64,000 nucleotides of DNA, taken from positions 13,633 through 77,632 of the forward strand of contig JAPLDA010000076.1 in the NCBI GenBank assembly GCA_026391945.1, written 5' to 3'. Position 1 is the stretch's first letter. Every line of letters begins with the position of its first letter. Below the pieces are notes generated by a model, which was given only the letters and a program-made list of their open reading frames with translations, was not told where the DNA came from and did not search any database. Source of the stretch: Bacteroidota bacterium (lineage in GTDB: Bacteria > Bacteroidota > Bacteroidia > AKYH767-A > 2013-40CM-41-45). This document shows positions 4,238 through 15,141 of this stretch, piece after piece. A program made the translations under genes and the position numbers.

Positions 4238-4740
4238 CTGAGAAAAACAATTCCTTCGCCCTTTTCAAATTCTACCGTCACATGTTCCTGCATGGTGGTG
4301 GCGAGTGAAAGGCCGACGAAATCGGCTGCTACCGGGTAACGCTTATGGTTCCGGTCCACCAGGACAACCGTTCGTATTTTTTTTATGTCAGCGTTTAAGA
4401 AAGGCCGGAGGGAATACATCAGCGTCTTTCCTGAATTCAACACATCATCAACGAGAATAATCACTTTTCCATGGAGTTCATCACGCGTGAGTGTCAACTC
4501 AATTTCCTTTCGTGTCTGGCTGTGTTTGTCAATTGTTACTTCGATGAGCCGGAGGCTGAGCGGTGATATTTTTTTCAGTGCATCCGCAATTTTTCCTGCC
4601 AACACATAACCGTTTTTCGCAATTCCGGCGATGATGATTTCCTGTTCTTCTGCATTGTCTTCATACACCTGGTACGCAATTCGGTTGATGCGTTGCTGCA
4701 CCTGGGATTCCCTGAGTATAACTGTTCCTGCCTGTTCCAT
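4234..4740 (-). CDS. Phosphoribosyltransferase family protein (type I PRTase fold)
   Basis: 168 aa with the PRPP-binding motif VIILVDDVLNSGKT. Overlaps the aroK stop by 4 nt. Confidence 0.7.
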   Translation of the reverse strand: MEQAGTVILRESQVQQRINRIAYQVYEDNAEEQEIIIAGIAKNGYVLAGKIADALKKISPLSLRLIEVTIDKHSQTRKEIELTLTRDELHGKVIILVDDVLNSGKTLMYSLRPFLNADIKKIRTVVLVDRNHKRYPVAADFVGLSLATTMQEHVTVEFEKGEGIVFLS

Positions 4741-4756
4741 TTGATAGCGATATTAA

Positions 4757-5296
4757 TCAATTTATTTTATCCGGGCAACCGGTTTCGATGGTTCCGCCTT
4801 TATAAAAATATTTTTTGTAATAGGGTTCATCGAGGTCGCTGATGATGACGCCTTCATGCACGCTGGCATGAATGAACTTATTGCCGCCGAGGTAAACGCC
4901 CACATGTGAAACGCGTTTTCTCCTGATCCTGAAAAAAACCAGGTCACCTTCCTGCAACTGATTTTTTTTTACCGGCCTGATGTTTTTGTAGATATCCTTC
5001 GAGCTTCCTTCCAGCTCCACATGAAAAACATGTTGGTATAAAACGTTTGCAAAGCCCGAACAATCCACTCCCTTTTTTGAATCTCCGGCATAGCAGTAGC
5101 GCGTCCCCAGCCATTCACCGGCCACTTCAAATAATTTTTCGTGACGGATCGTGTCGATTTCAAACCCAAAAAGGTTGGAGTAGGAGTAACACCATTCGAG
5201 TTGCAGCTGTTCGGAGTCAATCGCCGTCTCCTCCGCCTGAGCAGAACAGGTTTCAAAGGAAACCACCAAAAATAAAACAATTAAAAAACGCGGCAT
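4757..5296 (-). CDS. NlpC/P60 (C40) family peptidoglycan peptidase, secreted
   Basis: Signal peptide, catalytic Cys context DCSGFANVLY, and downstream His in SHVGVYLGGNKFIHAS. Confidence 0.8.
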   Translation of the reverse strand: MPRFLIVLFLVVSFETCSAQAEETAIDSEQLQLEWCYSYSNLFGFEIDTIRHEKLFEVAGEWLGTRYCYAGDSKKGVDCSGFANVLYQHVFHVELEGSSKDIYKNIRPVKKNQLQEGDLVFFRIRRKRVSHVGVYLGGNKFIHASVHEGVIISDLDEPYYKKYFYKGGTIETGCPDKIN

Positions 5297-5306
5297 CAGG
5301 ATGTGA

Positions 5307-6719
5307 TCAGGGTTGGTTTTTCAGCTTGAGCAAGGCAACGTTTTCGACATGCGTGGTGTGAGGAAACATATCAACGGGTTGCAATTTTTCCACCACGTAT
5401 TTTTCACTCATCAGGTTGATGTCTCTTGCCTGCGTGGATGGATTGCAACTGACGTACACCACTCTTGCAGGTTCGAGTTCAACAATTTTTTTTACCACCG
5501 CTTCGTGCATGCCAGATCTTGGAGGATCGGTGATGATCACATCCGGTTTTCCATGTTCACTGATAAAAGAATCGTTCAGTGTGTTTTTGATATCACCTGC
5601 AAAAAATGAAACATTGTTCACGTTGTTGTTCTTTGCATTTTCCTGTGCATCGAGGATGGCATCCGGTATATAATCAATCCCGATCACATGCCTGGCTTGT
5701 TTGGAAACAAAGCAGGCGATGGTTCCGGTTCCCGTGTATAAATCATACACCAGTTCAGTCCCGCGGAGTTCTGCAAATGACCGTGCTGCCTTGTAAAGTT
5801 CATAAGCCTGCAACGAATTCGTCTGGTAAAATGATTTCGCGCTGATCTTAAACCGGTAGCCTTCCATTTGTTCAGTGATGTGATCATGCCCTTTGAAAAC
5901 ATGAACATCAAGATCAAAAAGGGTATCATTTTTTTTAGGGTTGATCATATACAGGAGAGAAGTAACCTGTGGAAACTCCCCGGCGATGTAGTTCATGATT
6001 TTCTCCCGTGATTCTTTTTCATCAGACCTGAAAACAACAATCACCATCCACTCGCCGGTTGTGGATGAACGCAGTACGAGATTCCTGAGATAGCCTTCCT
6101 GCGCCGTTACATCGTTAAAACTGAAATGGTTTTCATTGGCAAAGTTTCTGACACCGTTCCTGATGGTGTTCGTGAGTTCATCCTGGAGAAAACATTTCCT
6201 GATGTCGAGGATTTTATCAAACCTCTGCGGAACATGAAAGCCGATGACGTTTTCTTCCGGTGAAACACCCGCTTCTTTTTCTTCTTTCGTGAGCCAGCGC
6301 TTGTTTGAAAATGTGAAGTCGAGACGGTTGCGGTAGAATTCTGTTTTCGCCGAACCGATGATGGGCGAAACAACAGGAAGTTCAACCTTCCCGACTCGTT
6401 GCAACACATCTTCCACCTGCTTTTGTTTGTAAAACAACTGCTGGCCGTATTCCATCATCTGCCATTTGCATCCTCCGCATATCCCGAAATGTTCGCATGG
6501 CGGATCTACGCGGTGTTCAGATGGTTTCTGAAGTTTAAGGATGCTGGCTTCCGCGAAATTTTTTTTGTTGCGGAATACCCTGATGTCGGCAACATCACCC
6601 GGAACGCCGCGCTCTACAAAAAGTACCAACCCTTCCTGCCTGGCAATCCCCATTCCTTCTGATGCAGCATCTGTGATGGTGACAGATTCCAGGATATCTC
6701 CGTTTCTGATCTTGTTCAT
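5307..6719 (-). CDS. rlmD: 23S rRNA (uracil-5-)-methyltransferase RlmD/RumA: TRAM domain, 4Fe-4S cluster and SAM methyltransferase
   Basis: 470 aa; N-terminal TRAM domain; Cys cluster CEHFGICGGCKWQ; C-terminal methyltransferase motifs (DLYTGTG, DPPRSG). Confidence 0.85.
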   Translation of the reverse strand: MNKIRNGDILESVTITDAASEGMGIARQEGLVLFVERGVPGDVADIRVFRNKKNFAEASILKLQKPSEHRVDPPCEHFGICGGCKWQMMEYGQQLFYKQKQVEDVLQRVGKVELPVVSPIIGSAKTEFYRNRLDFTFSNKRWLTKEEKEAGVSPEENVIGFHVPQRFDKILDIRKCFLQDELTNTIRNGVRNFANENHFSFNDVTAQEGYLRNLVLRSSTTGEWMVIVVFRSDEKESREKIMNYIAGEFPQVTSLLYMINPKKNDTLFDLDVHVFKGHDHITEQMEGYRFKISAKSFYQTNSLQAYELYKAARSFAELRGTELVYDLYTGTGTIACFVSKQARHVIGIDYIPDAILDAQENAKNNNVNNVSFFAGDIKNTLNDSFISEHGKPDVIITDPPRSGMHEAVVKKIVELEPARVVYVSCNPSTQARDINLMSEKYVVEKLQPVDMFPHTTHVENVALLKLKNQP

Positions 6720-6808: not shown

Positions 6809-8341
6809 ATGCTGAGAACTGGGAGAAAACTTTTTTTAGTCATTGCTTTCTTGGTCATGGCCAACGGTGTCTCCGCTACGCACATTGTGGGAGGTGACAT
6901 TGCCGTGAAATGGATGACCGGCAATGACTTCGAGGTAACCCTCACTTTTTTCCGTGACTGCAGCCCGACCTCCGCCGACTTCGACGCCATGGTGGAAGTC
7001 GGAATTTATGACAAGGTTTCGAACGTGATGGCGCTTTCATTCACCATGCCTTTGATTTCACGCGACACTCTACAGTTGGGCGATTCCTGTTTTACGCCAC
7101 AGAATTTATGCGTTGAGAAAGGAATTTTTCAAACGGTTCTTACCATCCCGCCTAACCCGGATGGTTATTACATCGCATGGCAACGCTGCTGCAGGAATTT
7201 CATCATCCTCAATATTCAGAATCCAGGTGCAGCCGGAATGGTCTTCTATGCTGAAGTTCCTGATCCTGCACTGCATGATAACTCACCTGTTTTTGGTTCC
7301 TACCCGAATGCCTACATGTGTGCAGGCGAAGTGAACCTGAAATCATTCGCCTGTTATGATCCGGATGGTGATTCGCTGGCCTATTCGCTGGTGACGCCGA
7401 TGAATGGTTTCACCGATCAAACCAATGTCGGTCAATATCCCGGTGCTGTAGTTCTCACTCCCGGCCCTTATCCCGGCATCGCATGGCAGTCGCCTTACGA
7501 TGCTTTCGATATGATGGGAGGTTCTCCGCCGATGAATATCAATACGAACACTGGGATGATCACCGCTCAGCCGGTGAATCTCGGTGTGTATGTTTTTGCA
7601 GTGAAAGTAGAGGAGTTCAGGAATGGAATGAAGATCGGGGAAGTCCGCAGGGATATACAATACCAGGTTCTGAATTGTCTTCTTATTTCTCCCCCGGTTT
7701 TTTCTTCGCCCGCAGTCACGACTGTTTCTTCATCGACATCGTCACTTGTTTATAACCTCGTTGCAGGCGATTCACTTTCTTTTGATGTCACGGTCACCAA
7801 TAACAATTCAGGTGATACTTTGTTTCTGAACGGATCATCTGAAATTTTTTCATCACAAATCCCGGGAATGCAGGCTTCATTTCGCAACGACAGCGGCCCC
7901 GGAACGGTTCAGCAAAAATTTATTTTGCAAACCGGTTGTGAAGCGATTCGTGAATCGCCTTACCAGGTTGATTTTTACGGCGTCAAACGCACGTGTTATG
8001 GCTTGATGATCACCGCCATTCATGTCGATATTTTTGTAAGGCCACCGCCCGAAGGGATGATCGATTCCCTGCTTCCGAATGTTTTCACTCCGAACAACGA
8101 TGGCGTCAATGAGTTTTTTCATGTCCGTGCCACCGGTGATTTTTGCCAGGATCAGTTCAGGTTCAGGATATACAACAGGTGGGGAACTCTGATGTATGAA
8201 ACAGAAGACTTCCGCTTTGAATGGGATGGGAAAAATAAAAACGGCAACAAACTTCCCGAAGGTGTCTATTATTACCTGATGGATGTTGAATTCAGGCACG
8301 ATTCCATTCATAAAAGAGGACTGATTCACCTGTGTTTATAG
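6809..8341 (+). CDS. Gliding motility-associated C-terminal domain (T9SS type B CTD) protein. Its Cys-rich N-terminal domain is paralogous to the gene at 1..2457.
   Basis: 510 aa; signal peptide; FFRDC and CCRN motifs. The C-terminus NVFTPNNDGVNEFF...WDGKNKNGNKLPEGVYYY matches the type B T9SS sorting domain. Confidence 0.8.
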   Translation: MLRTGRKLFLVIAFLVMANGVSATHIVGGDIAVKWMTGNDFEVTLTFFRDCSPTSADFDAMVEVGIYDKVSNVMALSFTMPLISRDTLQLGDSCFTPQNLCVEKGIFQTVLTIPPNPDGYYIAWQRCCRNFIILNIQNPGAAGMVFYAEVPDPALHDNSPVFGSYPNAYMCAGEVNLKSFACYDPDGDSLAYSLVTPMNGFTDQTNVGQYPGAVVLTPGPYPGIAWQSPYDAFDMMGGSPPMNINTNTGMITAQPVNLGVYVFAVKVEEFRNGMKIGEVRRDIQYQVLNCLLISPPVFSSPAVTTVSSSTSSLVYNLVAGDSLSFDVTVTNNNSGDTLFLNGSSEIFSSQIPGMQASFRNDSGPGTVQQKFILQTGCEAIRESPYQVDFYGVKRTCYGLMITAIHVDIFVRPPPEGMIDSLLPNVFTPNNDGVNEFFHVRATGDFCQDQFRFRIYNRWGTLMYETEDFRFEWDGKNKNGNKLPEGVYYYLMDVEFRHDSIHKRGLIHLCL

Positions 8342-8368: not shown

Positions 8369-9628
8369 TTGCCATACAAAATTGGAGGAAGTTTTATGAA
8401 AACAAGTGTAATGGATAAAACAAATTCGGAGCTAGCCATGGACAGGGAAAACCTGTATGGAGCGCACAATTACCACCCCGTTCCTGTGGTCATTGAGAGA
8501 GGAAGCGGCGTATTTGTCTGGGATGTGGAAGGAAAAAGATATTTTGATTTCCTTTCGGCGTATTCAGCGTTGAACCAGGGACACAATCATCCTGAGATTA
8601 TCCGTGCTTTCATTGAACAGGCAAAAAAACTGACGCTTACTTCCCGCGCTTTTTACAACGATTGTTTGGGCGAATACGAGGAATACATCACACGTTATTT
8701 CGGATACGATAAAGTGTTACCGATGAATACCGGTGCAGAAGGAGTGGAGACGGCCATCAAACTTTGCCGCCGGTGGGCTTATGAGAAAAAAGGAATCCGT
8801 GATAATGAAGCAAAGATTATTGTGTGTGAAGGAAATTTTCATGGAAGAACGATCACGGTTATTTCTGCTTCATCCGATCCTGATTCGTACGGACGGTTCG
8901 GTCCGTTTACTCCCGGATTTGTAAAGATCCCTTATGATGATATCAACGCATTGAAAAAAGCGTTGGAGGATTCCACCGTTGCAGGATTCCTCGTAGAGCC
9001 GATCCAGGGTGAAGCCGGTGTAGTGATACCTTCCGACGGTTATCTCCGTTCTGCTTACGAATTATGCAAAGAAAAAAATGTGCTGTTCATCGCTGATGAA
9101 ATTCAAACGGGACTTGCACGAACGGGAAAAATGCTGGCCTGCGATCATGAAGATGTTCGCCCTGATATTTTGATTTTAGGAAAAGCTTTGTCAGGTGGAA
9201 TGCTTCCGGTTTCGGCCATTCTCGCTGATGATGAAATCATGCTTGGCATCAAACCCGGTCAGCATGGAAGTACGTATGGCGGAAACCCGCTTGCAGCCAA
9301 AGTAGCCATTGCAGCGCTGAACGTTCTCAAAGAGGAACGGCTTGCAGAAAATGCCGAACGCCTCGGGAAAATATTACTGAGCGGGCTGAAAAGTATCCGT
9401 CATGAAATGATCCGGACGGTAAGAGGAAAAGGATTGTTCTGCGCCATGGTGATCAAGTCGTACCATGGCAAAGATGCCTGGGATGTTTGTCTTGCTTTGA
9501 AAGAAAACGGTTTGCTTGCCAAGCCCACGCACGGCGATATCATTCGTTTTGCGCCACCATTGATCATCACCGAAGAACAATTGATGGAGTGCATCAGCAT
9601 CATTAAAAAGACCATCGAAGGTTTTTGA
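8369..9628 (+). CDS. rocD: Ornithine--oxo-acid aminotransferase (class III PLP aminotransferase). The true start is probably the internal Met near 8399 (MKTSVMDK).
   Basis: [13 protein letters not shown]...[11 protein letters not shown]-terminal pattern and a PLP Lys region are typical of OAT. Confidence 0.8.
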
Positions 9629-9636
9629 AATGAAAA

Positions 9637-9665
9637 AGTCCCCCGGTTTCCGGAGGACTTTTTTC
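9637..9665 (+). terminator. Rho-independent terminator after rocD
   Basis: GC-rich hairpin agtcccccgg ttt ccggaggact followed by TTTTTT. Confidence 0.6.
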
Positions 9666-9692: not shown

Positions 9693-10205
9693 TCAGTGAC
9701 AAAGTTCTTTGATGACATCATCCACCATTTTGTCTCCGAGTTTTTTGGCCATCTGTAAATCTTCGCAGGCCGATTCACGTTCTCCTGTGTTGTACTTGGC
9801 AATGGCGCGGTTGTAATAACATTCTTTGTCATCGGGATTCAGGAAAATCGCTTTTCCGTAATCAACGATGGCTCCTTTATAATCTTTCATTTCGAATTTT
9901 GCATTTCCCCGGCTGTAATACAGTTCCACACTTTCTGTGTCTGCCTGTTCGATGAGATCGAAGTTGCTGATCGCGCTGGCATAATCTTTCATTTCGAATT
10001 TTGCAAACCCGAGGTTATACAACGCTTCTGCGTTCTTAGGCTCCAGCGCCAATGCCTGTTCAAAATCTTTTGCTGCTCCGGCAAAATCTTTTACACTTTC
10101 TTTCTGGTTGCCGCTTTTAATCAGGTCACCCGCGGTTTTCTGACCGAATGAAGAATGACAAACAAACAGGATGGATAAGAATGCGATTGATTTTTTGATA
10201 GTCAT
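9693..10205 (-). CDS. Secreted tetratricopeptide-repeat protein
   Basis: 170 aa, signal peptide, three or four TPR units (ALYNLGFAKFEMKDY, ELYYSRGNAKFEMKDY). Confidence 0.7.
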   Translation of the reverse strand: MTIKKSIAFLSILFVCHSSFGQKTAGDLIKSGNQKESVKDFAGAAKDFEQALALEPKNAEALYNLGFAKFEMKDYASAISNFDLIEQADTESVELYYSRGNAKFEMKDYKGAIVDYGKAIFLNPDDKECYYNRAIAKYNTGERESACEDLQMAKKLGDKMVDDVIKELCH

Positions 10206-10247
10206 AGGAAAGGTTGTTTTGAATGAATCATTGAATACACGTGCTGC

Positions 10248-10463
10248 TTATTTCTTCTTATGGTTTTCCATAAAATGTTTCTTGTCGCCCATGTTGTGTT
10301 TTTTGGGATGATGATGCTTCGGATGCCTGCGGTCACCCTTTTTAATGAACATCCTTTTTTCGGTATGGATTCCGAACGTTTTTTTCGGGGGAGCCGTGTT
10401 GGCCTGTGAGAATACAGAAACGCTCAGCACAAGCAGAAGCAGGGAAATGATGATCTTTTTCAT
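10248..10463 (-). CDS. Small secreted His/Lys-rich peptide (71 aa): signal peptide plus HPKHHHPKKH...HKKK tail
   Basis: Clear signal peptide MKKIIISLLLLVLSVSVFSQA; low-complexity basic His-rich C-terminus. No homolog recognised. Confidence 0.45.
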   Translation of the reverse strand: MKKIIISLLLLVLSVSVFSQANTAPPKKTFGIHTEKRMFIKKGDRRHPKHHHPKKHNMGDKKHFMENHKKK

Positions 10464-10528
10464 TGGCTTATTTTTATTGATTTTTCTATTGACAAGGATA
10501 CCTTCTAAAGGTTTAAAGTACGGAATTT

Positions 10529-11335
10529 TTATTCGTGGATTTCGTTTTCAATGTGTTTCTGAAGAACGGTGAGTTGTTTACGCACACGGGCTGTTTCATT
10601 ATTCTTCTCAGCGGCAAGTACTCCCGGTTGATCGAGGAGAGTGATGCTCTCTCCCGCCAGCGTGTGGATATTCCGAAGGATGGTAAGTATTGCGGCAGAC
10701 GCACCATCTTTCAATCTCCCCAATACGGCAACCCGGTGAATGGTCATTAACCTTTCCCTTCCCGTTTTCAGGTCATGTCTGGTTTTATTCAGTTTCACCG
10801 CAGCCTGTAACAGCAGGAATGCAAAAATGACTGTAAGCGCAATGATGCCAAGGGAAAAATAATGTTTGAAAGATTTTCTTTTGCTGACCAGGTTTTCATT
10901 GTCGGTTTGAAGTTGCTGAACCGAATTCTGTATCGACACAAAAGCATCGCCATCACTTTTTTCCTGGTTCGCAATATTCTGGTTCATTTTTTTTATCACC
11001 TCAGCTTTCTCCATGGCTAAAAATCCTTCCTTCATGGAAAGATATTTTTGAAAGACGACATATCCTTGTTTGAAATGATTGTTGATGGAATACCCATTGG
11101 TGACGGCCCGGTAGGTTTCAAGCAAAAGCTGCTGCTGATCTTTCCCCGTTACGGGATGCTCGTCAAAATATCGGAGCTGTTGTTGCAACACATCCAGCGA
11201 TTCTGTTTTGATGTACGTGTTTTTAGCCGCCGTGTTGATTTGAAGCAGGTCGGGAACAGCAGGAACAACAGGATCCTGAGCACTGGCGGATTTCAATGAA
11301 ATGAATAACAATAACAGGACGGTTATTTTTTTCAT
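10529..11335 (-). CDS. Membrane protein: signal peptide, helical periplasmic domain, one TM helix, ~80-aa cytoplasmic tail. Paralogous in architecture to the N-terminal half of the kinase-like gene upstream.
   Basis: 268 aa; TM segment GIIALTVIFAFLLLQAAV; overlaps the upstream gene by 4 nt (ATGA), suggesting co-transcription. Confidence 0.55.
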   Translation of the reverse strand: MKKITVLLLLFISLKSASAQDPVVPAVPDLLQINTAAKNTYIKTESLDVLQQQLRYFDEHPVTGKDQQQLLLETYRAVTNGYSINNHFKQGYVVFQKYLSMKEGFLAMEKAEVIKKMNQNIANQEKSDGDAFVSIQNSVQQLQTDNENLVSKRKSFKHYFSLGIIALTVIFAFLLLQAAVKLNKTRHDLKTGRERLMTIHRVAVLGRLKDGASAAILTILRNIHTLAGESITLLDQPGVLAAEKNNETARVRKQLTVLQKHIENEIHE

Positions 11336-12594
11336 GAGTGAGTGAAGAATTTAAGATACACATCGGTTCCGTTTCCCGCTTCCGATTCTATTTTAATTTC
11401 CCCATTGTTCTCAGTAAGAATTCGCCGGCTGAACGAAAGTCCAAGCCCGTTGCCTTCACCGGCTTCTCTTGTCGAAAAGAAAGGCTCATGAACCTGTTCC
11501 ATGATCACATCAGGAATTCCATCACCGTTGTCTTTGATTCTGACCTGCACAAACCGCGGAAGTACGCGGGTGCTGATGCTCACTTTGGGAATATATCCTT
11601 TGATTTCTTTTTTTGATTTTTCATTTACCGCTTGGAATGCATTGGCGAGTACATTCAGCAACAAACTTCCAATGGCTTCCGGGATGGCTTTGATGGCGGG
11701 TAAGTTCTTTTCGAAATCTTTGCTAAGCTGACATGAAAAAGTTCCCTCGGTCGTGATCATTTCACTGTATGCAAAATCACTGTACCGGTCACACAGCCGG
11801 TTCATGTCAACCGGTTTTTTTTCAGTTCCCGGCTCTCCATGCTGTTCATCAACGACTTTCAATAGGCTTTCGATACGGTTGATGCCGGAGAATATAAGTC
11901 CTGAATTTTTCTGCAGCGTCACGACGGAATGGTCTTTTGAATGTTCAGCCGGAAGATTTTCACTGACTTGAGCGACCTGTTTTTGCAGTTCGGAAGCCGC
12001 TGCCATGAAAGGAGGCAATTTTATTTTCCATTGTCCTGATTGAACAAAAAGTTCTTCACCGTTTTGAAACAACTGTTCGGAATTTTTCAGTTGTGTTTGC
12101 ATTCGATTCAGTTCTTTCCCCGATTTTTTTACCATCCTGTTTCTCCAGCTCAGTAAAATCAAAACTAAAAACAGCCAGGCAAAAAAGGCAATGCCTGCTT
12201 TGCGAATCAGGACGTGGTATTTATCCGTAAATGTTTCTTTGTCCTGATGGAGTTGATCCAGCGATGATTTCAAATCTCCGGTTTCGGTTCTTTGTTTTTC
12301 CATCTTGCCTGAATATGCTTTTCGAAGCGCATCCAGCGTATCTTCTTTTTCTTTTTCAAAAAGAGAGTCCTGCATCTTGTCGTATTTCTGCATTTCATCC
12401 AGTCCGAAACGATTCAGGTTTTTTGCACAGTAGGCGTCGGCTTTGTTTTTAAACTCACCCAGGATTCTCTGATGTTCAGGTGAAGAAATAACCGTCGTCG
12501 TTTCTTCTCCAAAGGAAACTACGGTGAATTTTAACATACACCAACTCAGCACAAATAATATTCTGAAAAATTTGTTCATTCGATCGTTGACCAA
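11332..12594 (-). CDS. Sensor histidine kinase-like protein: signal peptide, periplasmic coiled-coil domain, TM helix, C-terminal HATPase_c (GHKL) domain. No canonical HisKA H-box was recognised.
   Basis: 420 aa; N-box LLNVLANAFQAV, G-boxes DNGDGIP and GEGNGLGLS. No H-E-L-R-x-P-L type motif found between the TM helix and the ATPase domain. Confidence 0.6.
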   Translation of the reverse strand: MVNDRMNKFFRILFVLSWCMLKFTVVSFGEETTTVISSPEHQRILGEFKNKADAYCAKNLNRFGLDEMQKYDKMQDSLFEKEKEDTLDALRKAYSGKMEKQRTETGDLKSSLDQLHQDKETFTDKYHVLIRKAGIAFFAWLFLVLILLSWRNRMVKKSGKELNRMQTQLKNSEQLFQNGEELFVQSGQWKIKLPPFMAAASELQKQVAQVSENLPAEHSKDHSVVTLQKNSGLIFSGINRIESLLKVVDEQHGEPGTEKKPVDMNRLCDRYSDFAYSEMITTEGTFSCQLSKDFEKNLPAIKAIPEAIGSLLLNVLANAFQAVNEKSKKEIKGYIPKVSISTRVLPRFVQVRIKDNGDGIPDVIMEQVHEPFFSTREAGEGNGLGLSFSRRILTENNGEIKIESEAGNGTDVYLKFFTHS

Positions 12595-12714: not shown

Positions 12715-14658
12715 ATGAGAATGAGGATGTACAAGTTCAAACGATTCTTCAAGTGGCTCGTGATCTGCATGGCAGGATTTGTCGTCGTCTTCTTTCTGGC
12801 GAGGAATGTTATCCTTCATAAAGTGTTTGAGCGGATGGCCGGGAAGATGAAGGAAAAGTACGGGACGGAAGTTTCAGTTTCTGAATTGCATTTTTCCGGA
12901 GTCAGTGGAATTGTTGTTACAAAACTGGCTGTCGTCCCGGAACATTCAGATACCTTGCTTACGGTGGATTCATTGTATGTGTGCCCGTCGTTGTTTCGTC
13001 TTCTCATCGGCAAAGCGAGGATCCATGAAGCAGTTGCCAGGAACATCTCCCTTTCAGTTGTCAGGAAGAAAGGGTTCAGCAATGTTGATCGGTTCTTTAA
13101 AAAATCAGAACCGGATTCAACAGGAAAACATGCCGGACGGAATTTTGCTCAGTCATTAAACCGCGTCGCCACCGGAACATTCGACCTGTTTCCACAACAG
13201 ATGAATCTTCAGAATATCTCTGTTCGTTATCAGCGTGACGATGATATTGAAAAAGTGATGATTCCTTTTGTGACGGCTACTGAAGAAGCCATCGAATCAT
13301 CCATTCTGAATCTTCGGGATTCTTCGCAATGGAACTTGTCCGGGAATTTCTCTCAGCGTAAAAGAACATGTGATTTCAAAATTTTTCCCGGTGACACTGT
13401 CCCAACCGATTTACCGTTTCTTCAAACTTTGTTTTCGGTGAAATGCCGGTTCGATACGTTGCATGTCATGTTAAGCAAGTATGATTATTCCGGCGGACAG
13501 GCAGGTTTTTCAGGAAATGTTTCCACCGACCGTTTTTTTCTTCAGCATCCGAAAATCTCCGATGAGCCGGTCGGAGTGGATCATGCTGATTTCAGTTTCA
13601 GTTTCCGCGCAACGAAAAATTCTTTTTCACTGGATACAACCTCTATACTGGAACTGAATAAAATATTGCTTCATCCATCTTTCGAAATTACGAATGACGA
13701 AAAGAAAGTTTACAAGATTGGAATGGAAACGGAACGTCTTTCTGCCAACGATTTCTTCAATTCGCTTCCTTCCGGAATTTTTGATGAAGTGAATGGGGTG
13801 AAGGCAGATGGAACTCTTCAGTATTCACTTGGTTTCAGAATGGATTCATCTCAACCCGACAGCCTGTTTTTTAATTCTTCCATGAAGAAAGAAAGTTTCA
13901 GGCTGAGAAATCCCGGCAAAGAAAATCTTCTGAAGATGAATGAGGAATTTCTGTTTTCCGTTTTTGAACAGGAAAAATTTGTACGGTCTTTTTTGGTAGG
14001 ACCTTCCAATCCCGGATTTACTCCGTTGCTGCAGATAGCTCCGTCTTTTAAAAATGCCGTGATGACTTCTGAAGACGGAAGTTTTTTCTTCCACAACGGA
14101 TTTAATGAAGACGCTTTCAGGAAATCGATTGCAGCCAATTACCAGGCAGGAAAATTTGTCCGCGGCGGAAGCACCATTACCATGCAACTGGTAAAAAATG
14201 TTTTTCTCAACCGTCATAAAACCATTGCAAGAAAGGCCGAGGAAGCGCTCATCGTATGGCTCATCGAAAGCAATCATCTCTGCAGCAAGGAGCGCATGTT
14301 CGAAGTGTACCTGAACATCATCGAACTCGGTCCCGGCATTTATGGTATCGGTGAAGCATCCCGTTTTTATTTCAACAAAAAACCTTCGGAACTGAACCTT
14401 GCGGAAAGTGTTTTCCTCGCCAGTCTATTGCCGCGGCCGAAATGGTTTAAATATTCTTTTGATGAAACCGGTAACCTGAAACCCTATTTTGCCGGTTACT
14501 ACCGCGTGGTCGCGAATTTTTTATTGAAGAAGAACCTGGTCACACAGGAGGAATATGATCACCTGGAACCGCGTGTTGAATTGAAAGGGCCTGCTAAAAA
14601 CCTGGTCAGCCCGGCCGATAGTTTGCCGGCTTTGGAAGAAGAAAAAGAAACGGATTAA
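12715..14658 (+). CDS. Membrane-anchored protein with an AsmA-like N-terminal region fused to a C-terminal GT51 peptidoglycan glycosyltransferase (transglycosylase) domain
   Basis: 647 aa. GT51 motifs: EDGSFFFHNGFN (motif I), GGSTITMQLVKN (II), RKAEEA (III), EVYLNIIELGPGIYGIGEASRFYF, LAESVFLASLLPRP. N-terminus has a TM anchor followed by beta-rich repeats. Confidence 0.65.
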   Translation: MRMRMYKFKRFFKWLVICMAGFVVVFFLARNVILHKVFERMAGKMKEKYGTEVSVSELHFSGVSGIVVTKLAVVPEHSDTLLTVDSLYVCPSLFRLLIGKARIHEAVARNISLSVVRKKGFSNVDRFFKKSEPDSTGKHAGRNFAQSLNRVATGTFDLFPQQMNLQNISVRYQRDDDIEKVMIPFVTATEEAIESSILNLRDSSQWNLSGNFSQRKRTCDFKIFPGDTVPTDLPFLQTLFSVKCRFDTLHVMLSKYDYSGGQAGFSGNVSTDRFFLQHPKISDEPVGVDHADFSFSFRATKNSFSLDTTSILELNKILLHPSFEITNDEKKVYKIGMETERLSANDFFNSLPSGIFDEVNGVKADGTLQYSLGFRMDSSQPDSLFFNSSMKKESFRLRNPGKENLLKMNEEFLFSVFEQEKFVRSFLVGPSNPGFTPLLQIAPSFKNAVMTSEDGSFFFHNGFNEDAFRKSIAANYQAGKFVRGGSTITMQLVKNVFLNRHKTIARKAEEALIVWLIESNHLCSKERMFEVYLNIIELGPGIYGIGEASRFYFNKKPSELNLAESVFLASLLPRPKWFKYSFDETGNLKPYFAGYYRVVANFLLKKNLVTQEEYDHLEPRVELKGPAKNLVSPADSLPALEEEKETD

Positions 14659-14661
14659 CAT

Positions 14662-15141
14662 TTACACGGCCATGCAATTCAGTTGTTCCATCCTGTGCTG
14701 AAGTTCATTGAACGGAGCATACCTGGAAAAACGATCGCGGATGAGTTGAAGCATGGCTTCAGCTTTCTGAAGATGAAAACTTCTGACACGGTAAAATTCA
14801 GTTTCGGTCGTCTCACCGTTTTTGATGGCGGCACTTTTCAGGTCATCCCCGGCATCACAGAGGAAAATACGGCAACTGAGATCAAGCAGTGCATAGAAGA
14901 AAAGAACTTCCTCCGAATCAAAAGAGATGATTTCGCCGGTTTCATATTGTGAATTGTGAATTTCAAAATCGTCCAGCATTTCTTCCATGAAAATGTGGAG
15001 ACGCACGGCTTCCCGGATGAGGTCATAATCCGGGTGAAGGAGAATGAACTTCCCGGCAGCAATGGAAATGTTCACCAGTTGTTTAAAATCCCTGGTAACG
15101 TTCACCGCTAATTTATCGCCGTATAAAACAGATGCAGTCAT
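14662..15141 (-). CDS. Hypothetical protein (159 aa), no recognisable domain
   Basis: ORF only. Convergent with the upstream transglycosylase-fusion gene (4-nt gap after its stop); its 5' end faces the divergently transcribed miaE. Confidence 0.4.
   Translation of the reverse strand: MTASVLYGDKLAVNVTRDFKQLVNISIAAGKFILLHPDYDLIREAVRLHIFMEEMLDDFEIHNSQYETGEIISFDSEEVLFFYALLDLSCRIFLCDAGDDLKSAAIKNGETTETEFYRVRSFHLQKAEAMLQLIRDRFSRYAPFNELQHRMEQLNCMAV

Follow-up and report, generated by a model that had tools for sequence, protein, structure and literature searches.

An initial annotation of a 64,000-nucleotide stretch of Bacteroidota DNA (contig JAPLDA010000076.1, positions 13,633 to 77,632 of the forward strand; hereafter the window) described four minus-strand genes, which we call A to D, as a cluster of exported proteins headed by a kinase-like ATPase without an H-box. 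On balance, we favor a reading in which genes A and B encode a translationally coupled, hetero-oligomeric pseudo-histidine-kinase sensor that arose from the Bacteroidota tetratricopeptide repeat (TPR)-sensor kinase family and has an output other than phosphohistidine. Sequence comparison gives good support to the view that A and B are conserved, translationally coupled, kinase-derived membrane sensors, both of which appear to lack a phospho-acceptor histidine, and the pair probably signals in a non-standard way. Both proteins carry a signal peptide, a periplasmic domain of TPR-like type, a single transmembrane (TM) helix and, in the cytoplasm, a helical hairpin with homology to the dimerization and histidine phosphotransfer (DHp) domain of histidine kinases. 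All four open reading frames (ORFs) were found where they had been annotated, and the 4-nt overlap of A and B proved to be an ATGA shared by the stop codon of A and the start codon of B. Calling all four products exported was an overstatement, as both A and B span the membrane once and have large parts in the cytoplasm.

No phospho-acceptor histidine is conserved in the A family

In a search against Pfam, protein A matched a single family, HATPase_c (3.8e-18); HisKA-type models were not matched, not even at E ≤ 1, and the kinase models of NCBIfam were matched partially and below cutoff. None of the HisKA, HisKA_2, HisKA_3, HWE and His_kinase models matched A or B in the Pfam and NCBIfam scans. 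When 33 members of the A family were scanned at E ≤ 10, 89 families were matched in all, of which 25 were matched by most members; HATPase_c was present in all 33 proteins, and no HisKA-type model was among the 25. The homologues of A, which form about 90 clusters at 90% identity (403-451 aa, all from Bacteroidota metagenomes), likewise all carry PF02518 without PF00512, and relatives of A are annotated in their sources as 'sensor histidine kinase'. The profile search that had been proposed as a check on the initial annotation therefore returned HATPase_c as the only match in A, with no normal DHp profile.

We aligned 39 full-length A proteins from different genomes with the canonical relatives P0091, P0093 and P0214. 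Between its TM helix and its catalytic and ATP-binding (CA) domain, A is homologous to the canonical kinases, but the H-box motif is gone. The canonical phospho-histidine column falls at G187 of A, within an H-box equivalent at approximately residues 172-197, and its most frequent residues among the 39 proteins were K (10), A (8), S (5), H (3) and R (3). No column of the hairpin contained histidine in more than 15% of the 39 genomes. The absence of an H-box from the kinase-like protein was thus borne out by both profile scans and alignment, as a property of the family rather than of one degenerate copy. The segment LQKNSGLIF..., which had been taken for a DHp helix with its histidine replaced, was rejected as the H-box helix, because the alignment places it in the second helix of the hairpin; residues 227-245 (LQKNSGLIFSGINRIESLL) align there with the corresponding helix of canonical kinases (..NLEKI..HGKRA..IVK.ML). 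At the start of this second helix, the A proteins of six loci (L040, L041, L043, L044, L072 and L078) have a local D-K-Q/N ... H-P motif, so that histidine occurs in 6 of 39 proteins at that column, a clade-specific rather than family-wide feature.

The domains of A differ greatly in their conservation. Mean pairwise identity was 0.25 in the periplasmic domain, 0.33 in the TM helix, 0.15 in the hairpin (the least conserved domain) and 0.46 in the CA domain (the most conserved). Working histidine kinases normally show strong conservation of the H-box; in A, the hairpin has been freed of sequence constraint while the ATP-binding domain is still constrained, the reverse of what would be expected of such an enzyme. 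The ATP-binding residues N318 (N box), D355, N356, G357 and G359 (G1) and G383 and G385 (G2) were 95-100% conserved in the 39 genomes (92-100% for the N, G1 and G2 residues when G2 is taken as G383-L-G385-L), and the CA domain looks competent for ATP binding. A family motif, STRxLPRFxQxRxxDNGxG, spans the G1 box. Its portion T-R-x-L-P-R-F-x-Q-x-R-x-x-D, at residues 342-355 just before the G1 box (11530-11571, minus strand), is 92-100% conserved in the A family. In P0091 and P0214, two of the canonical relatives, this motif is missing and the residues at its place vary. The motif may form a family-specific interaction surface. In the periplasmic domain, which follows an N-terminal signal/TM segment, N61 was invariant and L60, R62 and Y71 were nearly so.

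A single-chain AlphaFold2 (AF2) model of A (predicted local distance difference test score, pLDDT, 85.8) contains a helix at residues 39-57, a continuous helix at 61-213 that runs from the periplasm through the membrane into the cytoplasm, a return helix at 222-252 and an alpha/beta domain at 260-417. The model thus shows, as a monomer fold, a helical-hairpin domain linking the TM helix to the CA domain. In Foldseek searches, approximately 250 columns of the model aligned to the DHp and CA domains of ZraS, HK853, YycG, KinB, CckA and DivL (E 1e-16 to 1e-13), the DivL structure 4q20 being among the matches, and a search of PDB sequences with A returned kinase CA domains. Judged by sequence, A and likewise B would be pseudo-histidine kinases, in which the kinase fold is kept and an essential residue has been lost family-wide, and A appears to lack the defining character of a class I (HisKA-type) histidine kinase, which is a conserved phospho-acceptor histidine in the DHp domain.

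The TTG start listed for A is probably wrong, and the true start is probably the ATG at 12579 (MNKFFRILF...), five codons downstream. In two other loci, A is split into two ORFs on the same strand beside an intact B (L046, around 4400-5501, 203 and 153 aa; L048, around 4400-5585, 167 and 220 aa). The contigs of both have names of the form tig000..., which we take to be a sign of long-read assemblies, and the split could be due either to an indel error or to genuine pseudogenisation.

Protein B is homologous to A and to the DHp region of canonical kinases

Protein B is identical to the 'hypothetical protein' NT126_08920 of a Bacteroidetes metagenome-assembled genome (MAG), and its homologues form about 85 clusters at 50% identity. 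It had no significant match in Pfam, NCBIfam or PDB sequences; the only PDB matches of the B profile were to polyubiquitin, and these were rejected as spurious. The A profile matched B at 8.5e-7, and in the comparison of periplasmic domains that the initial annotation had called for, hhalign aligned A41-235 to B69-262 with a probability of 94% (E 1e-7), from the periplasmic domain through the TM helix to the cytoplasmic helix. The B profile also matched canonical Bacteroidota kinases at approximately 1e-8, and its tail (...dlkaGrerLktihriavlGkLkkGilltin...) aligned to their H-box helix. By this alignment, B carries a degenerate H-box helix of its own, with no catalytic domain. The canonical histidine column, A214 in this protein, is variable, its most frequent residues being A (9), N (9), S (7), H (6) and K (5) among 66 family representatives. 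The earlier description of B as a protein with the same periplasmic and TM architecture as A and only a short cytoplasmic tail was correct in its plan and incomplete in its tail, which holds the homologous hairpin with this degenerate H-box helix.

In the periplasmic domain of B, H87 is a histidine in 57 of the 66 representatives, and residues 61-109 match the repeated TPR units of large Bacteroidota TPR kinases. The AF2 model of B (pLDDT 79.8) places three short helices in the periplasm, a long one at 88-234 that crosses the membrane and a short returning one at 245-267; Foldseek returned nothing significant with this model, only weak, non-significant matches to TPR proteins. B is about equidistant from A and from canonical kinases, and the safe statement from these sequences is that A and B both descend from the TPR-kinase family; we do not claim direct copying of one from the other.

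The A-B pair, not the four-gene cluster, is conserved

In a conservation scan with one genome per species, we found full-length A genes in approximately 40 species-level MAGs, every one from uncultured Bacteroidota; among them is Candidatus Pollutiaquabacter aromativorans, of the order Ca. Pollutiaquabacterales. B lay directly downstream of A at every one of these loci where the contig continues. The gap between the two genes ranged from -83 to +6 nt, with overlaps of 4 nt or 1 nt being common, and the larger overlaps may be artefacts of choosing the longest ORF.

The pair occurred in at least three unrelated gene contexts. In the main clade, to which the window belongs, A-B (followed in some loci by C-D) stands between a transglycosylase (Transgly) and an aminotransferase gene, inside a larger syntenic block that runs from thioesterase, MiaE and Transgly to aminotransferase and TrmA genes, and co-occurrence within this clade could reflect vertical inheritance. 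In L016, L018 and L011, A-B adjoins genes related to AIR synthase, and in distant clades it follows a PrmC-like methyltransferase gene, with RibD, EamA, DinB and LigA around it. The neighbors in these alternative contexts are housekeeping genes unrelated to those in the window. Because the pair recurs in contexts with no shared neighbor genes, the conserved unit is A-B and not the four genes. For the same reason we rejected any functional tie of the pair to the peptidoglycan transglycosylase gene (divergent) or to the aminotransferase gene (convergent), as these adjoin the pair only in the main clade and are absent from L016, L018 and all the distant clades. In two loci of the distant clades, a DUF456 membrane protein of 161-166 aa is encoded directly 3' of B on the same strand (L077:6415-6900 and L071:6890-7390).

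The proposal that the four genes form a unit therefore holds for A and B, which were together wherever the contig continues, and not for C and D, which follow B in approximately 14 of the roughly 30 loci of the main clade and do not occur in the other clades. D was present after B in about 14 main-clade loci, and C was confined to the closest relatives and a few others. Both proteins are what the initial annotation had called them. Of the 51 residues of mature C, a secreted His/Lys-rich peptide, 8 are His and 13 are Lys; its pI is 10.7 and it has a conserved motif, F.IH.EKR.FVKK; D, a secreted TPR protein, matched TPR_1 at 3.7e-18 (three stretches) and TPR_2 at 5.5e-18 (four stretches), as expected of tandem TPRs. 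C and D are linked to each other by their fusion in three loci (L021:7011-7643, L030:7000-7638 and L019:6999-7589), where C-like and D-like sequences form one ORF of 196-212 aa in which a signal peptide and an F.IHK.KR.F..K motif are joined to the TPR domain, suggesting that C and D work together. We propose that they would be a lineage-specific periplasmic accessory composed of a TPR protein and a basic N-terminal peptide, sometimes fused.

No response regulator is linked to the pair

We searched for receiver domains with a home-made hidden Markov model (HMM) of the receiver (REC) domain, which found none in the 64-kb window at E ≤ 1 and none within approximately 5 kb of A-B in any of 45 loci. 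As a positive control, loci of canonical relatives were searched with this HMM, and 12 of 42 contained receivers. That no response regulator is nearby, as first noted in the window, was thus also true of the 45 related loci. No bona fide kinase or regulator that could be a partner was linked to the pair, and no STAS, sigma-factor or other candidate substrate gene recurred beside it among the loci examined. The family-wide loss of the H-box and the absence of a linked regulator support the earlier judgment that this is not a standard two-component system. What had been called an uncharacterised envelope sensing or binding module is better described, with its extent corrected, as the kinase-derived pair A-B.

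Locus layout and neighboring genes

The positions of the genes and domains are given in Table 1. The cluster is flanked by a convergent aminotransferase gene (8369..9628, plus strand) and by a divergent transglycosylase gene (12715..14658, plus strand), which is separated from A by approximately 120 nt and encodes a 647-aa protein with a GT51 transglycosylase domain and, in relatives, a weak DUF748 match; it neighbors A in the main clade only. Between the transglycosylase and MiaE genes, an ORF of 159 aa (14662-15141, minus strand) is found in almost all main-clade loci (E 1e-43 to 1e-105); its counterparts in L001 and L003 have no Pfam match on record, and it is a conserved protein of unknown function. 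On the other side, between the TrmA-like and aminotransferase genes, a plus-strand gene (6809-8341) encodes a secreted protein of 510 aa, which is also present at this place in L005 and L010 and not in most relatives; the L005 counterpart matches CHU_C, which we take to be a type IX secretion sorting domain. In a consensus scan, terminator-like sites in the region were not more numerous than expected, and the promoter and terminator scan as a whole did not exceed the shuffled expectation. PADLOC and Rfam searches found nothing relevant.

Table 1. Positions in the window of genes A to D, of the domains of A and B and of a terminator-like site.
Feature	Positions	Strand	Description	Basis
Gene A	11332..12594	minus	420 aa; membrane sensor with a kinase fold and without a phospho-acceptor His	ORF list
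A periplasmic domain, residues 30-133	12196..12507	minus	Helical (TPR-like) sensor domain; motif AKNLNRFGL..YD	AF2; hhalign to B
A transmembrane helix, residues 134-150	12145..12195	minus	Hydrophobic stretch GIAFFAWLFLVLILLSW	Within the continuous helix 61-213 of the model
A helical hairpin, residues 153-256	11827..12138	minus	Cytoplasmic, DHp-like; no conserved His	Alignment; AF2
A CA (HATPase_c) domain, residues 257-417	11344..11826	minus	N, G1, F and G2 boxes intact	Pfam; PDB
Gene B	10529..11335	minus	268 aa; signal peptide, periplasmic TPR-like domain, TM helix and short cytoplasmic helical hairpin; no CA domain	ORF list
B periplasmic domain, residues 20-157	10865..11278	minus	TPR-like; motif NNHFKQGY (H87)	
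B degenerate H-box helix, residues 190-216	10688..10768	minus	GRERLMTIHRVAVLGRLKDGASAAIL	B HMM alignment to canonical kinases
Gene C	10248..10463	minus	71 aa; secreted basic His/Lys-rich peptide; accessory	ORF list
Gene D	9693..10205	minus	170 aa; secreted; three TPR repeats; accessory	ORF list; Pfam
Terminator-like hairpin	9640..9657	minus	3' of D, before the convergent aminotransferase gene	Consensus scan (weak)

Discussion

The A and B proteins have the plan of the Bacteroidota TPR-sensor histidine kinases (P0091, P0214, P0218 and that of Segetibacter koreensis, L058), which consist of a signal peptide, periplasmic TPRs, one TM helix, HisKA and HATPase_c, and the homology is clear. A aligns to P0091 over 77% of the length of A, with CA motifs identical in kind, and the juxtamembrane region, TM helix and tail of B match the H-box region of these kinases and its periplasmic unit their TPRs. 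A and B differ from them in that both lack the phospho-acceptor histidine, AHEIxNPL being gone and no HisKA Pfam match being found, in that B has no CA domain, and in that their periplasmic domains are cut to approximately 100-140 residues. Two canonical TPR kinases occur in tandem, 11-16 nt apart, in Segetibacter koreensis (L058:2135-6089) and in a Chitinophaga MAG (L050:1151-5481), and both kinases of each tandem keep GIAHEIQNP, DNGxG and GTGLGL. Such an arrangement is a plausible picture of the ancestral duplication that may lie behind A-B.

The reading that we favor for this pair may be stated as a model. A and B would join via their TM and DHp-like helices as a hetero-oligomer, which would sense something periplasmic via conserved motifs, NLNRF in A and NNHF in B. 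The output of this complex would bypass the canonical transfer from phosphohistidine to aspartate; the CA domain of A would be a nucleotide-dependent switch or an interaction surface, as in DivL, and the complex would act on an unlinked partner, either a bona fide kinase or another protein. DivL of Caulobacter crescentus is a pseudo-histidine kinase with tyrosine in place of the histidine, in which, according to the DivL report (PMC4211667), an output domain has been turned to use as an input sensor instead of a phosphodonor. A resembles it in keeping the DHp and CA fold without a phospho-acceptor histidine, but DivL consists of one multi-PAS protein acting together with DivK and CckA, whereas A belongs to a two-gene, periplasm-sensing pair in which the corresponding position is unconstrained and not fixed to tyrosine. 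In the RocA-CovS and RetS-GacS systems, kinase-derived or kinase-like membrane proteins modulate a kinase by contact and not by phosphotransfer (as cited in PMC12675982). The partner in those cases is a bona fide kinase with its histidine, whereas neither A nor B has one, so that a bona fide kinase, if involved, would be a third and unlinked component.

Several points weigh against this model. The interaction of A with B is itself a prediction, and all carriers of the pair are uncultured MAGs. An intact and strongly conserved ATP-binding domain fits real catalysis more easily than a purely structural role. The near-invariance of a histidine in the tail of B (H200) in the main clade hints that it may be a relocated phospho-acceptor, and an orphan response regulator could still be encoded elsewhere in the genome. 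A stronger form of the proposal, about which we are doubtful, is that A-B is an obligate heteromeric device that works without a response regulator and either employs a relocated acceptor at B His200 or couples ATP binding or hydrolysis to a non-phosphorelay output.

A further possibility, which we consider unlikely, is a split heterodimeric kinase resembling FasBC, in which the CA domain of A would phosphorylate B His200 and the phosphate would then pass to an orphan response regulator elsewhere. FasB and FasC of group A Streptococcus are adjacent kinase paralogues that form a heterodimer by two-hybrid analysis; FasC is a proposed pseudokinase that keeps a functional canonical histidine (H246), the CA domain of one subunit is dispensable, the kinase domain of one subunit is proposed to phosphorylate the histidine of its partner, and the operon encodes the response regulator FasA (PMC12675982). 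A search of the literature on split or truncated kinases yielded nothing useful. A and B resemble FasBC as two adjacent, presumably co-transcribed kinase paralogues (by the ATGA overlap, the approximately 40 genomes and the hhalign probability of 94%), A supplying the sole, intact and strongly constrained CA domain. Within the main clade, no feature of the cytoplasmic tail of B is more conserved than H200-R201 (27 of 28 paired genomes), and H200 lies exactly 14 residues (two heptads) N-terminal of the canonical histidine column, probably on the same helical face. However, neither A nor B has a conserved canonical histidine, and the tail of B was rejected as donor of one, as the canonical column is variable; the only candidate in the subunit without the CA domain is H200, in the main clade. 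Residue 200 is a histidine in 33 of the 66 representatives, being E, Q, S, N, Y or F in other clades, yet the CA domains of the A partners there are still intact. The residue at this position corresponds to the conserved glutamate of the canonical SEKMASLG, and some B clades still have EK, so that H200 appears to be a derived, clade-specific substitution. In addition, no acidic residue follows H200, it showed no pattern of covariation with A residues 166-187, and the lack of a response regulator at all 45 loci is unlike fasBCA, as is the fact that the heterodimer of A and B is predicted.

It is rather improbable that A is a GHKL protein kinase or ATPase acting on a substrate other than histidine, whether as a SpoIIAB-, RsbW- or BCKDK-like Ser/Thr/Tyr kinase or as an ATPase motor, with B as its regulator or scaffold. 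The ATP-binding motifs are kept without any conserved histidine, the invariant STRxLPRFxQxR beside the G1 box points to a partner or substrate of its own, and the searches with A also returned SpoIIAB (1e-6, PDB sequence search) and BCKD kinase (Foldseek). A nonetheless scored far better on HATPase_c, at 5.6e-19, as against 0.0049 at best for HATPase_c_2 (in 15 of 33 members), the closest relatives of A are ordinary HisKA-type kinases, and the neighbors examined were housekeeping genes, with no recurring substrate gene of the kind expected of the SpoIIAB/RsbW anti-sigma type. The remaining explanation, that A is an ordinary orphan histidine kinase whose divergent DHp domain escaped the profiles, with B, C and D as unrelated neighbors held there by vertical synteny, draws on the annotation of relatives as sensor histidine kinases and on the syntenic main-clade block, in which co-occurrence could be inherited, but is very improbable and already largely refuted by the lack of a conserved histidine in the cytoplasmic linker of A in 39 genomes, by the persistence of A-B, with its overlapping start and stop, in contexts that have no further gene in common, and by the homology that links B both to A and to the DHp regions of kinases.

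Pseudo-histidine kinases and kinase heterodimers have been studied in a handful of cases (DivL, RocA, FasBC and RetS-GacS). The A-B pair is a widespread, conserved two-gene family in which both phospho-acceptors appear to have been lost while the ATP-binding domain is under strong constraint, which raises the question of what role a kinase catalytic domain has once no histidine remains for it to phosphorylate. The misannotation of A as an ordinary 'sensor histidine kinase', and of its partner as 'hypothetical protein', also inflates counts of two-component systems in Bacteroidota MAGs. If A-B were the obligate heteromeric device considered above, it would be a periplasmic sensor built of kinase parts and functioning without a response regulator, of a kind not yet described.

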